64,000 nt of DNA from Alphaproteobacteria bacterium (GCA_017635595.1 JAGBLF010000023.1:8398-72397); one strand, 5' to 3'; shown: positions 39,982-42,733, counted from the stretch's first letter. Numbers and translations: made by a program. The notes: generated by a model from the letters alone, not told the origin.

Positions 39982-40163
39982 TTTTACATCCTTAAATAAA
40001 ATTTAAAACCATTTATGCGGGCACACTGCGCCCATTGGGCATAATTTAATACACAAAATAAAAATTATTGCAACAAAAATATATTTATCCTCAAGAAATT
40101 TGTAAAAAAGCGCCGTTTTTTTAAGCAAAACGACGCTCTGTCAATATTATGGTGCTGATATTC

Positions 40164-40895
40164 TTAAAAACTCCGATCATCACCCTGATTTTGCAAATTC
40201 GTAAAATTAAAAGCATTGGTATTTATTTTTACTTGTGATACGGCAGTTTCTTTTCCATCCTGTGGTATTTTCTTTCTGACATCATCTGATGTATGAAGCT
40301 GCGGTTCCATTGTAATATGGTTTGTATTTTCCCGAGTCCGTGTTTTACTGTTTTCTTTTTGTTTTGCCAGACCTGCCCGACCGGCTTTTTCAGCAGCTTT
40401 TATCTTCGTATTATTCTCGGCGATATCAATTGCATAAGTTGCCGCTTGCCCCATACCTATTGCCCCCGCAACATAGGCACTTATAGTAAACAGAGGTGCG
40501 GACATTCCCCCCATCGCGACGGTACCGACTGCTAAACACGCTGCCCCGGCGGTATACATGGCAACCTTAAATTTGTCGGCTCTATCAAACTTTTTCCATT
40601 TCTCGCGGAAGCTCAGCTTAGAATTATCCTGAACGTTCTTCCCGGAAGCGATTGTCTCTGCTTTTTTATTGACGGCCTGGGCTTTGTTTGCTGCCGATGC
40701 GGCCAAAGCTGACCCCGTCATGGCTATTCCAGATACCAAAGCGCTTGTCAAAGCACCGCCGCTGACAACAACCGAAGCTGTACACAAGGCTGCCATTGCA
40801 CCCCACGAAATTGCCGCTCCGGTAAAAAGAGCATTATTCTTTGCATAGACGTCCATATCCTTAAAATTGTTTTTTATATTGTTCCAAAATCCCAT
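40164..40895 (-). CDS. Glycine-zipper membrane protein, paralog 1 of 3 (C-terminal tail ...KINTNAFNFTNLQNQGDDRSF)
   Basis: RBS GAAAGGAT. Gly/Ala-rich hydrophobic segments. The last ~50 nt of coding sequence are near-identical at the DNA level to paralog 2 (CCTGATTTTGCAAATTCGTAAAATTAAAAGCATTGGTATTTATTTTTAC). Confidence 0.5.
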   Translation of the reverse strand: MGFWNNIKNNFKDMDVYAKNNALFTGAAISWGAMAALCTASVVVSGGALTSALVSGIAMTGSALAASAANKAQAVNKKAETIASGKNVQDNSKLSFREKWKKFDRADKFKVAMYTAGAACLAVGTVAMGGMSAPLFTISAYVAGAIGMGQAATYAIDIAENNTKIKAAEKAGRAGLAKQKENSKTRTRENTNHITMEPQLHTSDDVRKKIPQDGKETAVSQVKINTNAFNFTNLQNQGDDRSF

Positions 40896-40928
40896 TCTGT
40901 TATCCTTTCAATTATAGACTATTTTGCG

Positions 40929-41393
40929 TTAAAATTTCCGTCCGCCCTGATTTTGCAAATTCGTAAAATTAAAAGCATTGGTATTTATTTTTACCGGAGG
41001 CACTGCCTTTGGCGCTTCTTTTGTTTTATTCTTGTTTACTTTGGCCCGAGTTTTGGCTTTTGCCGTATTTACATCCTGAGCCAACAGACTGGCTACCGGT
41101 ACATGAGGGGTGACACCCAACGTATCAACCAAAGCCTTTCCGTAAGCTTTCTTTTTCTGACTTGTCGTCAGCGGACGACCGTGGTTTTCTTTTGCAATTT
41201 CCTGCATGGCTTTATTTTTGCGAGCAATATATTCCGTGCCGACACTGTATACATAGGTTCCAACAACAGCAGCAACTACTGCTGCACCGAGCCCGCCGCT
41301 CATTCCTCCGGCAACACCTGCGCAGGTAGCAACCAATACCTTTTTAACCGACGGTCTATTAAAATGACTTTTAATTTTATCCCATAATTTCAT
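40929..41393 (-). CDS. Glycine-zipper membrane protein, paralog 2 of 3 (tail ...KINTNAFNFTNLQNQGGRKF)
   Basis: Start moved to ATG 41393 (MKLWDKIKSHF), preceded by AAGAGGAG. TM segment VLVATCAGVAGGMSGGLGAAVVAAVVGTYVY. Confidence 0.5.
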   Translation of the reverse strand: MKLWDKIKSHFNRPSVKKVLVATCAGVAGGMSGGLGAAVVAAVVGTYVYSVGTEYIARKNKAMQEIAKENHGRPLTTSQKKKAYGKALVDTLGVTPHVPVASLLAQDVNTAKAKTRAKVNKNKTKEAPKAVPPVKINTNAFNFTNLQNQGGRKF

Positions 41394-41415
41394 AACCATA
41401 CTCCTCTTTGTTCGA

Positions 41416-41997
41416 TTATAGCTTCCGACCGCCCTGCGGTTGCGTAAATCCATTAAATTCGAAAGCTCTTGTCTCAATTTTTTTAGCCGGTTCGGCAATT
41501 TTCGTTTTTTTAGATAAAACTTTTCCGTTCACTGTTTTTTTGGCATCATCTATACTTTGAACCTGATAATTTCTTTCCATTGCAGATTCTGTTCTTTGCC
41601 CTGCTCCTGCATTTTGCGTTGCCTGCTGAGCAACCTGCTTTTGACGCATTCTGGCAAACACTTCCTCGTAATGCTCGTATTGCTGCGCCAATGACTTTTG
41701 GGTGTTCTTAAATTTTGTTATACCGGATTTTGATTTAAAAATAAGATTTTGAGCTTTATTTTTCGCGTAGCGTACCAAATCATAACAGACGTTTACGGCG
41801 CCGATAGCAACATAACCGGCGGCCACACACCCCAGTGCCGCACCTATACCGACACCGGCACTGACACCGATCGGACCGCTGACAACTGCGCCGACAGCAC
41901 AAGCCGCACCGATAAAGAGATAAGTCTTCAGCAGTTTTTTGGCAATTTTTTGGCCTTCGATAACATCCGGATCTTCTTGCACTGTTTGTTCGACCAT
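41416..41997 (-). CDS. Glycine-zipper membrane protein, paralog 3 of 3 (tail ...IETRAFEFNGFTQPQGGRKL)
   Basis: TM segment LFIGAACAVGAVVSGPIGVSAGVGIGAALGCVAAGYVAIGAV. More divergent from the other two, but shares the C-terminal F-x-F...Q-x-Q-G-G-R-K motif. Confidence 0.5.
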   Translation of the reverse strand: MVEQTVQEDPDVIEGQKIAKKLLKTYLFIGAACAVGAVVSGPIGVSAGVGIGAALGCVAAGYVAIGAVNVCYDLVRYAKNKAQNLIFKSKSGITKFKNTQKSLAQQYEHYEEVFARMRQKQVAQQATQNAGAGQRTESAMERNYQVQSIDDAKKTVNGKVLSKKTKIAEPAKKIETRAFEFNGFTQPQGGRKL

Positions 41998-42160
41998 AAG
42001 ACACCTGTTCGTTACATAAGCTACTTTATATGTCTATATTAACAGATCTATACAATTTTGTCAATATTTTTAAAATAACCGTTATCATTTTATTGACATA
42101 AAAGCCATGATATGATACATATTTTCTGACTTATGAATAATTTAAATATATCAATGTTCT

Positions 42161-42661
42161 ATGAATAATTTTGTTTTTTCTGACTTACTGAATGATATGC
42201 AATATATTTTGCATGGAGTGTCTTATCGCCTGCTGTTGTGTACTTTTGTGCTGTTTTGTTGCATTATTGCTGTTGCATTGATCCTATGTGTGCTAAAGTC
42301 ATTTTCTCTGGATTTGGCTGACAAACAAGACATCTTGGCTGATAAGTACAACAATCCGTACAGTTCTTACGACGGAACATACGAATTGCCGCGTACCAAC
42401 ATTTTCAAAGCGATGTGTTACGCTAACTTAAGTTACCACACTTTTTGGAATGCCGTAATTATGAGCCGTTTTCGTATCTGCATGCATAAATGCCCGCAAG
42501 TGTATTTCCGCGTAAATTGCTTCAGTTCACATGGTTTCTTGACTATCAGATACCCTGATGTGCTGGTTATGATGTTTTCGCTGTCATTTATCTGGGGCTA
42601 CCCCTTATTCTTGCTTATAATGCTCTTGAGAATGGGTTTCTATTCCAAAGATCTGTACTGA
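42161..42661 (+). CDS. Questionable hypothetical membrane ORF antisense to the operon direction
   Basis: Long ORF but no RBS. Cys-rich hydrophobic sequence. May be spurious. Confidence 0.2.
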   Translation: MNNFVFSDLLNDMQYILHGVSYRLLLCTFVLFCCIIAVALILCVLKSFSLDLADKQDILADKYNNPYSSYDGTYELPRTNIFKAMCYANLSYHTFWNAVIMSRFRICMHKCPQVYFRVNCFSSHGFLTIRYPDVLVMMFSLSFIWGYPLFLLIMLLRMGFYSKDLY

Positions 42662-42682
42662 TAATTTTTTCACATTGCAAAA

Positions 42683-42720
42683 ACAAAAGGGAACAGTTGT
42701 TGACTGTTCCCTTTTGTTTT
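42683..42720. terminator. Bidirectional Rho-independent terminator (AAAAGGGAACAGTTGTTGACTGTTCCCTTTTGTTTT) immediately 3' of rplO
   Basis: Perfect 8-bp GC-containing stem with A and T flanks. Confidence 0.65.
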
Positions 42721-42733
42721 ATCATAGTCGATA

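Follow-up and report, generated by a model that had tools for sequence, protein, structure and literature searches.

The rplO-secY junction of an uncultured gut alphaproteobacterium is broken, as is normal for its clade, and carries a small family of predicted membrane proteins with a shared C-terminal tail

In the canonical S10-spc-alpha gene cluster (…rpmD-rplO-secY-adk…rpsM-rpsK-rpoA), rplO and secY are contiguous, secY starting within ~100 bp of rplO with neither terminator nor promoter between them. Among membrane proteins, YqjD, ElaB and YgaM of E. coli are anchored in the membrane and associated with ribosomes, and they offer a functional analogy for one of the readings weighed below. 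The CdzC and CdzD proteins of Caulobacter are 84-86 aa long, consist to ~75% of Gly and small hydrophobic residues, and have leaders at their N-termini; their genes adjoin an immunity gene and those for type I secretion (PMC5380434). Chlamydial Inc proteins are defined not by sequence similarity but by a bilobed hydrophobic domain (~40-60 aa) whose two termini are on the same side; they form fast-evolving, lineage-specific families of paralogs (PMC3656976).

The locus analysed here lies in a stretch of 64,000 nucleotides (the window) from an uncultured gut alphaproteobacterium. On both sides of the junction the window matches the canonical cluster in gene content and order, but it adds a terminator after rplO, a dedicated and conserved promoter and leader before secY, and 2,752 bp with four additional genes between the two (Table 1). 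The usually close association of rplO with secY has been lost in this organism, as is normal for its clade; the canonical contiguous arrangement is, as judged from the sequence, absent from the window. Here rplO is the final gene of the upstream ribosomal transcription unit, while in the gene order of the window secY heads a secY-adk-rpsM-rpsK-rpoA unit; in the ~6 kb that follow rpoA, no gene for Ribosomal_L17 was called. As far as can be told from the sequence, the gap contains one strong terminator, two promoter-like sites and the four genes. An earlier note on this DNA had proposed that rplO is terminated before secY, and this was indeed borne out by a perfect 18-nt inverted repeat (arms 42680-42697 and 42703-42720, 5-nt loop) with T-runs on both strands, which folds at -28.1 kcal/mol (z -7.8) and was equalled by none of 200 shuffles. 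The same note had put the insertion at 3.4 kb, which measurement from the rplO stop to the secY start reduced to the figure given above.

It had further been supposed that the split is peculiar to this insertion and that accessory genes at the junction are unusual, neither of which survived a survey of 68 assessable related genomes. Only nine, the most distant relatives (~70% SecY identity), had a gap no longer than 100 bp (79-97 bp); the gap was expanded (>100 bp, about 130-3,352 bp) by unrelated cargo in 28, and secY lay away from rplO, with no rplO upstream of it, in 31. Since the junction is therefore expanded or broken in 59 of the 68, with cargo that differs from genome to genome, accessory genes at this place are the rule in the clade. 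Moreover, almost every relative has a hairpin at the equivalent position downstream of rplO, including relatives with a gap of 80-97 bp. The cargo of sister genomes at the same junction includes a 771-aa ankyrin-repeat protein and a zeta-toxin-like P-loop protein. Pilin cargo was also seen among the junction contents of sister genomes. These comparisons show, at the level of predicted signals, that a terminator closes the spc operon after rplO in this clade of uncultured Alphaproteobacteria from gut and rumen, and that secY-adk-rpsM-rpsK-rpoA would form a separate unit. With the spc operon ending at rplO and the secY unit under its own promoter, the junction would be tolerated as a place for rearrangement and accessory genes; and because unrelated cargo collects there in sister genomes, position at the junction says little about function.

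The promoter of the secY unit, suspected earlier at ~40.0-40.15 kb, is predicted within that interval and is conserved in relatives. It comprises a -35 element, TTGCAA (40073-40068), and a -10 element, TATTAA (40051-40046), with TGTG ahead of the latter, and a conserved box, TTGAGGATAAA, lies upstream of it at 40094-40084. The promoter is kept upstream of secY in relatives down to ~75% SecY identity, and both promoter and leader are also kept in relatives in which secY is no longer near rplO. When the leaders of relatives were examined, 18 of 30 could be folded, and all but one or two of these had a GC-rich hairpin at a similar place, albeit with different stem sequences; RNAalifold found no consensus structure in an unrefined alignment of the leaders.

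Table 1 Features of the rplO-secY junction, numbered from the first nucleotide of the window
Feature	Position	Strand	Remarks
secY	38632-39981	-	Pfam SecY, E 6.9e-104
Hairpin in 5'-leader of secY transcript	40013-40044	-	GGGCGC…GCGCCC core; -13.6 kcal/mol, z -3.0
Dedicated secY promoter and upstream box	40046-40094	-	Exact positions confirmed
Intrinsic terminator of g cassette	40101-40139	-	13-bp stem, then U-run; -17.2 kcal/mol, z -3.5
g3	40164-40895	-	243 aa; two Gly/Ala-zipper hairpins (22-68, 109-150), conserved juxtamembrane block, tail KINTNAFNFTNLQNQGDDRSF
50-nt tract in g3 tail	40183-40232	-	Direct repeat, 100% identical to 40945-40994
g2	40929-41393	-	154 aa; ancestral-type member; tail KINTNAFNFTNLQNQGGRKF
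50-nt partner tract in g2 tail	40945-40994	-	Same direct repeat
g1	41416-41997	-	193 aa; one ~50-aa Gly/Ala-zipper hairpin, basic linker, tail KIETRAFEFNGFTQPQGGRKL
Promoter of g cassette	42036-42064	-	TTGACA, 17-nt spacer, extended -10 TGtTAATAT; exact position confirmed
anti	42161-42661	+	166 aa; convergent membrane-protein gene; conserved family, uncharacterised
Bidirectional intrinsic terminator	42680-42720	both	Common to rplO (-) and the convergent gene (+)
rplO (ribosomal protein L15)	42734-43189	-	151-aa ORF; Pfam Ribosomal_L27A, E 9.6e-21

Of the four genes in the gap, the convergent one, designated anti, had been dismissed as an antisense ORF of doubtful validity; it is in fact a real, conserved gene, with members in 18 protein clusters and a dN/dS of 0.12-0.24. 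It is present in lineage L095, where every g gene is absent, and adjoins secF in the distant relatives L091 and L093. The anti gene thus appears to predate the g cassette and to be independent of it, and the apparent insertion is evidently a composite of an older anti gene and a g operon.

The remaining three genes, g1, g2 and g3, are co-directional, and their coordinates and individual ribosome-binding sites (Shine-Dalgarno AGGTG, GAGGAG and AAGGA, respectively) agree with the earlier reading, as does the hairpin seen at ~40100-40140, which is the predicted terminator of the cassette. The cassette promoter matches the consensus at 10 of 12 positions, plus the TG; it is kept in all five g-carrying lineages and decayed in the g-less L095. 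L009 and L006 have a terminator hairpin at the corresponding place; that of L098 differs in sequence, and that of L095 has decayed. A longer, TTG-initiated g2 ORF (41498) was rejected, as it overlaps g1 and its extension has no support from orthologs. The arrangement, with a sigma-70 promoter close to consensus ahead of the three genes and a terminator behind them, shows what would be a self-contained g1-g2-g3 operon.

Outside the tail, g1-g3 resemble one another at the profile level only, pairwise BLASTP similarity being weak. However, an HMM built exclusively from foreign g2 orthologs retrieved g1 (E 1.5e-7) and g3 (E 4.2e-5) from the window, the next ORF scoring E 0.4, and by this measure the three are evidently true paralogs, as had been proposed. 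The family is remarkably narrow in distribution: g1 had only one ortholog cluster in 1.84 billion representative proteins, while in 5.8 billion proteins g2 had only two clusters and g3 three, every one of the latter at the same locus. The cassette occurs in only a few lineages with 96-98% identical SecY, in 0, 1, 2 or 3 copies, and always between rplO and secY; in L098, a single g2-like gene is the sole family member, and in L095 the cassette is absent despite a SecY that is 96% identical. This distribution shows a family that would have grown by tandem duplication from one g2-like gene. The earlier note had considered that close relatives might carry the same cassette with orthologs of known function; the cassette is indeed in close relatives, but no ortholog has a known function.

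That the g ORFs are chance frames, or the decaying remains of an earlier insertion, is scarcely credible and effectively refuted by dN/dS. Such ORFs might well lack homologs outside the clade and domain matches and yield unconfident structure predictions, as is the case here; nonetheless, dN/dS is 0.21 for g1, 0.22-0.29 for g2 and 0.32-0.37 for g3 (0.02 for secY), at a dS of ~0.85-1.1 in the closer comparisons, with frames intact in four or five lineages, and promoter, Shine-Dalgarno sequences and terminator are conserved, as is the peptide motif of the tail in the face of synonymous change. By these estimates, g1-g3 are real genes, apparently under purifying selection (dN/dS 0.2-0.37). Their dN is nevertheless more than 10 times that of secY. 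The codon adaptation index against the ribosomal genes of the window is 0.47-0.56 for the g genes, compared to 0.57 ± 0.05 for other window genes, 0.72 for ribosomal genes and 0.67 for secY; together with the restriction to few lineages, these values mark the cassette as probably accessory.

The shared tail, K-[IV]-x-[TS]-x-A-F-[DNE]-F … Q-G-G-R-K-F, spans ~20 residues and is found in exactly g1-g3 among the 373 ORFs of at least 40 aa in the window. The earlier note had recognized the shared motif correctly, but its list of the tails ran against the gene order: the tail of the first gene (41997-41416) is IETRAFEFNGFTQPQGGRKL, and that of the third (40895-40164) is KINTNAFNFTNLQNQGDDRSF. Likewise, the ~50 nt of identity at the 3' ends was confirmed at 50 nt, as was its likely origin in gene conversion, but it joins the second and third genes and not, as previously stated, the first and second. 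The identical 3' ends of g2 and g3 are explained by recent gene conversion, in which the g1 tail takes no part. In L009 and L097, the g2 and g3 tails are likewise homogenised, over a tract of ~75 nt, while in L006 the two share only 58% nucleotide identity and yet retain the peptide motif. The motif also survives synonymous changes (GCT TTC, GCA TTT, GCC TTT), which suggests that the tail is constrained at the protein level. Most members end in …GGRKF and are net basic there, the exceptions being L098 (…FKGPEL) and g3 of the window (…GDDRSF).

With their many N, Q, G and aromatic residues, these tails invite comparison with self-templating, amyloid-like motifs; the paralogs would then aggregate together and so activate the Gly zippers to damage membranes, on the model of fungal HET-S and of bacterial Bell/BASS signalling between adjacent genes. 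The motif does have the appropriate length (~20 aa), C-terminal location, composition and preceding flexible linker, and within a genome adjacent paralogs are more alike in their tails than orthologs are, as is also true of effector/NLR motif pairs (bioRxiv 10.1101/2020.01.06.895854). The within-genome similarity, however, is accounted for by gene conversion at the DNA level, as synonymous sites are identical too, and the g1 tail stands outside the homogenisation. A search of the whole window found no NLR/STAND gene whose N-terminus carries a matching motif, the AF[DNE]F-type motif is absent from the N-terminus of the nearby AAA ATPase (30123-32207), and there is no Bell-domain signature; furthermore, BASS systems are reported mainly from Actinobacteria and Cyanobacteria that are multicellular, and only rarely from Proteobacteria (bioRxiv 10.1101/2020.01.06.895854). 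We consider the amyloid explanation exceedingly improbable.

The Gly/Ala-zipper helices and basic regions noticed earlier were both found. Each protein has long hydrophobic stretches rich in Gly, Ala and Ser (34 aa in g2, ~50 aa in g1, 47 and 42 aa in g3) with repeats of [GAS]xxx[GAS] spacing and a central Gly/Pro-rich turn, which predict a helical hairpin; at 34-50 aa they evidently exceed the length of a single span. They are bordered on both sides by K/R-rich segments, and the net charge of the proteins is +11 to +19, with 24-30 K+R per protein. From hydropathy and the positive-inside rule, we infer that the tails are in the cytoplasm. No conserved signal peptide with cleavage site or lipobox was found in the g family; the sole Cys in the hydrophobic stretch of g2 has no lipobox context and is missing in L098. 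The basic C-terminal 100 aa would also argue against export. Both structure predictions were of low confidence; the AF2 model of g3 showed two helix-turn-helix hairpins and a coil tail, but at a pLDDT of 36.5 it is uninformative. The g2 sequence consists of an MxxWxxIK N-terminus, the 34-aa hairpin, a GRPLT…KALVDTLG block and the tail. This block, and AxDIAENNxKIKA in g3, are better conserved than the tail, and therefore the tail may not be the main functional element.

On the basis of this architecture, our best guess, to which we would give slightly less than an even chance, is that the g proteins act as membrane-anchored tethers or scaffolds that present a cytoplasmic docking peptide. One or two helical hairpins of the Gly/Ala-zipper type would hold each protein in the inner membrane and leave both of its ends in the cytoplasm; each would also carry an A-[KR]-NKA-Q helix close to the membrane and a linker that is long, basic and probably flexible, and the ~20-residue C-terminal peptide would serve as a short docking motif, recruiting to the membrane either a shared soluble partner or the paralogs themselves. 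They would thus be neither core components of the ribosome or the Sec system nor classical secreted proteins. It is to be noted that a tail docking on a highly conserved hub should vary less between species than is seen (NTNAFNFTNLQNQ, STRAFDFDFMKSQNQ, ETKAFDFGNFIGNQ, and a different end in L098), which counts against a tether. Divergence, copy-number variation, lack of homologs and a common C-terminal peptide also typify families of secreted effectors and toxins, and this equally counts against it.

A more specific role, in which the basic linkers and tails bind ribosomes or SecY/SecA at the membrane, would account for the location between rplO and secY wherever the cassette is present. The net charge, which recalls the basicity of ribosomal proteins, is in keeping with it, and so is the anti gene as a neighbor of secY here and of secF in distant relatives. 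However, the junction accepts unrelated cargo in sister genomes, L095 does without the cassette, the codon usage of the g genes differs from that of their neighbors, and there is no match to DUF883 or any other Pfam family. Moreover, the tails differ across species although ribosomal proteins and SecY are 96-98% identical. Tethering of ribosomes or the Sec machinery is, on balance, very unlikely.

Export was weighed in the same manner, the earlier note having suggested that the tail could be a sorting or secretion signal. If g1-g3 were effectors or toxins, the basic C-terminal peptide would direct their translocation in the style of type IV or type I secretion, and the Gly-zipper hairpins would enter a target or host membrane like the chlamydial Inc proteins or the pore formers CdzC/CdzD. 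The bilobed hydrophobic domains of 34-50 aa, the restriction to a single lineage, the rapid evolution and varying copy number, and the tail common to otherwise divergent paralogs are all consistent with this, as are a very weak NCBIfam similarity of g1 to an Inc family (E 0.32), the ankyrin-repeat and zeta-toxin-like cargo of sister genomes, and a VirB8-domain gene, seen only in a distant relative. On the other hand, no secretion-system gene, including any cdzAB-like ABC/MFP gene, was found in the 20.7 kb around the cassette or in 20 further ORFs, together about half of the window, and no T3SS was seen in the scanned parts. No immunity-like gene co-varies with the cassette, and anti occurs without it. 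The g proteins had no match in Pfam, PADLOC or PHROGs, no search having found a known family, and the g2 tails of L098 and L006 lack the basic-aromatic end. Export is judged unlikely. That the K-I-x-T-x-A-F-x-F…GGRKF tail is an undescribed recognition signal of uncultured gut Alphaproteobacteria, either for delivery of Inc-like hairpin proteins into the membrane of another cell or as a membrane-tethered docking peptide for a core machine such as the ribosome or Sec, seems to us distinctly unlikely. If true, it would make the rplO-secY junction a privileged, highly transcribed landing pad for genes of host or competitor interaction, a picture that the ankyrin-repeat, pilin and toxin-like cargo of sister genomes would suit.

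Compared with known systems, the g proteins resemble the C19orf12-like glycine-zipper family (PF20721) in their zipper stretches and predicted helical hairpin. In the HMM searches that the earlier note had suggested, the zipper part of PF20721 was the best sub-threshold Pfam match for 4 of 11 g-family members, and no family could be assigned: the best scores, 13.2 bits in both cases, fell short of the cut-offs of 30 for PF20721 and 25 for Oleosin (PF01277). The likeness is one of composition only, and the basic linker, conserved cytoplasmic blocks and C-terminal motif of the g proteins have no counterpart in PF20721. With the Cdz system they share an alphaproteobacterial host, tandem small genes, extended glycine zippers and lineage-specific spread; however, CdzC and CdzD are leader-bearing proteins of ~85 aa, almost all Gly and small hydrophobic residues, that adjoin their own T1SS (PMC5380434), whereas g1-g3 are leaderless, 154-243 aa long, and have long hydrophilic, basic regions. 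A bilobed hydrophobic domain of the Inc type is present in g1-g3, but the feature is not specific, and Incs are type III substrates of obligate intracellular Chlamydiae with N-terminal signals, while the g family is from a gut alphaproteobacterium and shares a C-terminal element. In Bell/BASS pairs (bioRxiv 10.1101/2020.01.06.895854), as here, a terminal motif of ~20 aa follows a membrane-targeting N-terminal part in the products of adjacent genes and is similar within a genome; the g family differs in having neither NLR partner nor Bell domain, in belonging to another phylum, and in comprising three like proteins whose similarity is driven by gene conversion. By all these comparisons, g1-g3 appear to be orphan, fast-evolving, lineage-restricted membrane proteins without detectable relatives. 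The DUF883 proteins YqjD, ElaB and YgaM have a single C-terminal TM anchor, whereas the predicted anchors of the g proteins are N-terminal hairpins.

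The S10-spc-alpha superoperon is interrupted in the window between rplO and secY, where the 2,752 bp separating the rplO stop from the secY start hold seven features when counted in operon direction, among them three genes, g1, g2 and g3, that form a cassette of their own. The outline given in the earlier note, i.e., a superoperon split after rplO with three paralogs sharing a C-terminal tail, proved right and the feature is real, although several details were wrong; the gap, for one, had been put at 3.4 kb. An Rfam search over the gap returned spurious miRNA-hairpin matches on the terminator and nothing else. 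The GC content of the cassette (0.44) matches that of its surroundings, so that composition gives no sign of a recent foreign origin. Plus-strand ORFs also lie opposite g2 (40953-41387, 144 aa) and g1 (41749-42042, 97 aa); these, like the other opposite-strand ORFs over g1-g3, were rejected as shadow ORFs and are not to be annotated.

Features of the rplO-secY junction and of neighboring regions (window coordinates, except the last line, which refers to locus L038 of another genome)
Feature	Position	Strand	Remarks
S10-spc ribosomal genes down to rplO	rplO 42734-43189	minus	
Perfect-stem hairpin	42680-42720		18-bp stem, 5-nt loop, T-runs on both strands; -28.1 kcal/mol, z -7.8
Convergent ORF, 166 aa	42161-42661	plus (opposite)	terminator is the same hairpin, 42680-42720
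Predicted promoter upstream of g1	42064-42036	minus	near-consensus, TTGACA-17-TGtTAATAT
g1, 193 aa	41997-41416	minus	Shine-Dalgarno present
g2, 154 aa	41393-40929	minus	Shine-Dalgarno present
g3, 243 aa	40895-40164	minus	Shine-Dalgarno present
Cassette terminator	~40139-40101		-17.2 kcal/mol, z -3.5
Second predicted promoter, ahead of secY	40073-40046		TTGCAA-16-TATTAA, preceded by TGTG
Short leader hairpin			last feature of the gap, followed by secY
secY predicted promoter, upstream box and leader hairpin	40013-40094	minus	upstream 100 nt compared in L006-L077
secY-adk-rpsM-rpsK-rpoA	starts at 39981	minus	
PilS/bundlin-type pilin gene	34474-35487	plus	downstream of rpoA
Double-AAA ATPase, faint NACHT/STAND similarity	30123-32207		downstream of rpoA
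WYL/WCX regulator	29089-30051		downstream of rpoA
ORF in the gap of L038	381-2696		

The split itself is normal for this clade, and not peculiar to this genome. Eighty loci around SecY relatives, all from gut, rumen or faecal alphaproteobacterial MAGs, some in mislabelled bins, were fetched from one-genome-per-species collections, and the junction could be assessed in 68. The gap was 100 bp or less in only nine of these, all with ~70% SecY identity; it measured 101-3,352 bp in 28, and in the remaining 31 the sequence upstream of secY was free of rplO for at least 3 kb. The cargo of the expanded gaps differs, and is unrelated, between genomes; by-eye assignments in five of them (L038, L040, L042, L044, L072) include a 771-aa ankyrin-repeat protein, a zeta-toxin-like P-loop protein, a type IV pilin-like gene, an XRE regulator and a GNAT acetyltransferase; lipoproteins and small membrane proteins also belong to the cargo. 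A hairpin follows rplO in nearly all assessed genomes, including those with tight gaps. Conservation of the ~100 nt preceding secY extends to relatives with only ~75% SecY identity, even where secY sits behind dnaX-recR, alaS or rpsD. This conserved stretch comprises a box, TTGAGGATAAA, a TTGCA-type -35, an invariant GTGTATTA -10 region and a GC hairpin whose stem varies by genome (GGGCGC/GCGCCC, GGGAC/GTCCC or GGGTT/AACCC). Since these hairpins are out of register, RNAalifold returned no consensus for the secY leader alignment. The box was also considered as a repeated regulatory site, and its four matches in the window are not above chance. Taken together, the gap counts, the rplO hairpin and the conserved secY upstream region show that a large clade inherited the operon break from its ancestor; rearrangements and accessory genes gather at the junction as a hotspot, where the g cassette is the cargo of a single lineage. 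A stable split is possible even in the most conserved gene cluster of bacteria, and the breakpoint then collects accessory genes throughout this clade of uncultured gut and rumen Alphaproteobacteria, which matters wherever S10-spc-alpha synteny is used in binning, phylogeny or operon prediction. It is to be noted that six alphaproteobacterial secY contigs (L012, L014, L022, L026, L031, L082) came from bins named Bacteroidaceae, [Ruminococcus] gnavus, Eubacteriales, Lachnospiraceae or Limosilactobacillus gorillae, and are probably mis-binned or mislabelled.

A second structured element lies just before rplO, as the 148-nt rpmD-rplO spacer (43190-43337, minus strand) folds into a long hairpin (-41.8 kcal/mol, z -4.35). 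In 14 relatives, 21 of the 29 predicted pairs carry compensatory changes and the paired share of cells is 94%, compared with 41-51% after sliding of the partner columns, and none of 500 shuffles reached the observed values; these results speak for a conserved structured element, for which Rfam has no matching family. Its covariance model also matched other intergenic sites, with copies of ~110-150 nt, among them the site directly 3' of rpoA in the window (35780-35935, minus strand) and in three relatives; copies in other genomes lie at L074:5852-5989 (in the rplO-secY gap of that locus), L016:11972-12126 and L080:5677-5824 and 7492-7651. Matches at several sites point to a dispersed long-hairpin family at operon boundaries rather than an rplO-specific leader, and the family, whether an RNA or a DNA element, appears REP-, terminator- or processing-site-like. 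In the window, the gene rplQ (L17) does not follow rpoA; the region downstream of rpoA (27002-35935) holds, besides the genes listed in the table, small conserved ORFs, a DUF3137 protein and a metallo-beta-lactamase-fold protein. This region varies between L001, L006 and L009, and may be a variable or defence-type island.

The convergent 166-aa gene had been regarded as an antisense ORF of doubtful validity, a view contradicted by its homologs, which fall into 18 protein clusters and share 28 invariant columns, and by a dN/dS of 0.12-0.24. Its product is a membrane protein, of a family found in gut Alphaproteobacteria only, with an invariant core YDGTYELP…NLSYHTFWNAVIM…FIWGYP, and no fold match was obtained for it. 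The gene adjoins rplO/secY in close lineages and secF-secD-yajC in distant ones, to which it is convergent in L091 (6001-6522) and L093 (6001-6528), so that it is a Sec neighbor in both; in L099 it adjoins rplO, though secY is gone from there. It is a separate, older passenger at the junction.

As for the cassette, BLASTP similarity among g1, g2 and g3 is weak outside the tail. An HMM built exclusively from the g2 orthologs of other genomes, when searched against the 373 ORFs of the window, nonetheless matched g1 nearly end-to-end (E 1.5e-7) as well as g3 (E 4.2e-5), the next best hit having an E of 0.4; by this profile similarity, the claimed paralogy of the three genes is real. Each protein carries hydrophobic stretches of 34-50 residues, one in g1 and g2 and two in g3, which are rich in Gly/Ala/Ser at i+4 spacing, have a Gly/Pro turn in the middle, and are flanked on both sides by K/R-rich segments (net charge +11 to +19). 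These stretches exceed the length of a single membrane span, and the positive-inside rule predicts helical hairpins whose two ends face the cytoplasm; an AlphaFold model of g3 gave helix-turn-helix pairs and a coil tail at a pLDDT of 36.5 and is therefore without weight. The hairpin is followed in all three by an A-[KR]-NKA-Q juxtamembrane segment, then by conserved blocks specific to g2 (GRPLT…KALVDTLG) or to g3 (AxDIAENNxKIKA and TRTRENTNHITMEPQ), a poorly conserved basic linker, and finally the tail. The N-terminus MxxWxxIK is common to g2 and g3, and by eye g3 looks like a g2-type protein in which the N-terminal segment and hairpin were duplicated.

The tail motif [KRTV][IV]x[TS]xAF[DNE]F occurs in g1-g3 and in no other ORF of the window. 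In the 11 tails compared, the conserved core reads K-[IV]-x-[TS]-x-A-F-[DNE]-F, with A-F-x-F invariant and slight variation at the first position, whereas the QGGRK[FL] end is frequent and not universal (FKGPEL in L098, RKS in L006 g2, DDRSF in window g3). The codons for the conserved A-F differ (GCT TTC, GCT TTT, GCA TTT, GCC TTT), which argues that it is the peptide that is constrained. A nucleic-acid element, whether RNA or DNA, was rejected as an explanation of the tails, since the motif outlasts synonymous substitutions and persists in L006 at a nucleotide identity of only 58%. The tails of g2 and g3 are identical over 50 nt in the window (40183-40232 = 40945-40994) and almost identical over ~75 nt in L009 and L097, while nucleotide identity between the two falls to 58% in L006; tails of g1 track ordinary orthology (89% between genomes). 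The earlier note had seen the ~50 identical nucleotides and ascribed them to the first and second genes, when they belong to the second and third, and it listed the tails in reversed gene order. The pattern of tail identity shows that g2-g3 gene conversion has recurred, confined to the 50-75-nt tail, in addition to selection on the peptide. A tail of the amyloid signalling type is highly improbable, since the NLR partner that defines such systems is absent from the window.

The exact g3 protein was found on metagenome contigs from ruminant gut and in one MAG labelled Alphaproteobacteria bacterium; the two-piece (permuted) tmRNA gene of the window (11856-12187, plus strand, 206 bits), being of the alpha type, fits this class. 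Searches of 5.8 billion proteins with g3 and g2 retrieved nothing beyond orthologs, and an exhaustive g1 search of 1.84 billion representatives likewise gave orthologs only, apart from P0025, an unrelated repeat protein. With the g2 alignment, a scan of metagenome contigs recovered only an already known contig, and one of viral contigs nothing viral. All orthologs with readable surroundings occupy the same site, between the antisense gene and secY. Among lineages with SecY 96-98% identical to that of the window, copy number varies: all three genes are present in the window, L009 and L097, two (g2-like and g3) in L006, and a single g2-like gene of 203 aa in L098; L095 has none, and its decayed remnants of the cassette promoter and terminator can still be aligned. 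These copy numbers and remnants suggest that the family most likely began as a single g2-like gene, that tandem duplication enlarged it, and that at least one lineage lost it by deletion. On a small scale, the cassette neatly illustrates the origin of an orphan family of membrane proteins, with tandem duplication from one copy to three, an apparently duplicated internal hairpin in g3, and tail conversion. As the family is very narrow and has no assigned function, its immediate impact is modest.

Non-functional ORFs were excluded by the dN/dS analysis of g1-g3, which gave 0.21-0.37 where the same genome pairs give 0.02 for secY, with amino-acid divergence more than tenfold that of secY. Such fast evolution would suit exported effectors or toxins with the tail as translocation signal, and so would the varying copy number, the orphan status of the family, its bilobed hydrophobic domains, which resemble those of Inc proteins, and the effector-like cargo that sister genomes carry at this junction. 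Although this is the main rival, we consider it unlikely, as the examined parts of the window hold no secretion genes, no immunity gene co-varies, and the tails are not uniformly basic. The position between rplO and secY invites yet another explanation, a tether for the ribosome or Sec, which is improbable given that the site is a hotspot, that a close relative lacks the cassette, and that its codon usage, which sets it apart from the ribosomal neighbors and secY, is no better than that of ordinary genes.

No family, fold or context found in any search gives g1-g3 a function: nothing significant was obtained for the three proteins, two orthologs and the convergent gene in NCBIfam, PHROGs or PADLOC, or for the cassette in Pfam (window proteins and all 11 g-family members), and PDB profile searches with the g2, g3 and convergent-gene families gave nothing below E 0.4. 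Our preferred reading, held tentatively and at somewhat short of an even chance, is that g1-g3 are membrane tethers. The hairpins would serve as inner-membrane anchors for a flexible, basic, cytoplasmic arm, whose short conserved terminal peptide would dock onto a soluble partner or sister molecules. Anchor, basic arm and terminal peptide together make up the architecture of a tether; this structural reading is the best supported, what has been established being the architecture itself. Should the tail turn out to serve in docking or export, its 20 residues would provide a handle for a receptor hunt in uncultured organisms.

Compared with known systems, g1-g3 are not Cdz bacteriocins, from which they depart in size, in leader and in the adjacent type I secretion system, nor are they DUF883 proteins or a Bell/BASS pair; they belong to no Pfam glycine-zipper family, their scores being sub-threshold, and with Inc proteins they have only the non-specific bilobed hydrophobic domain in common. 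Overall, known ingredients are combined here: accessory genes that one lineage carries as a cassette at an operon junction, membrane proteins of the glycine-zipper type, and a short terminal motif common to all three.
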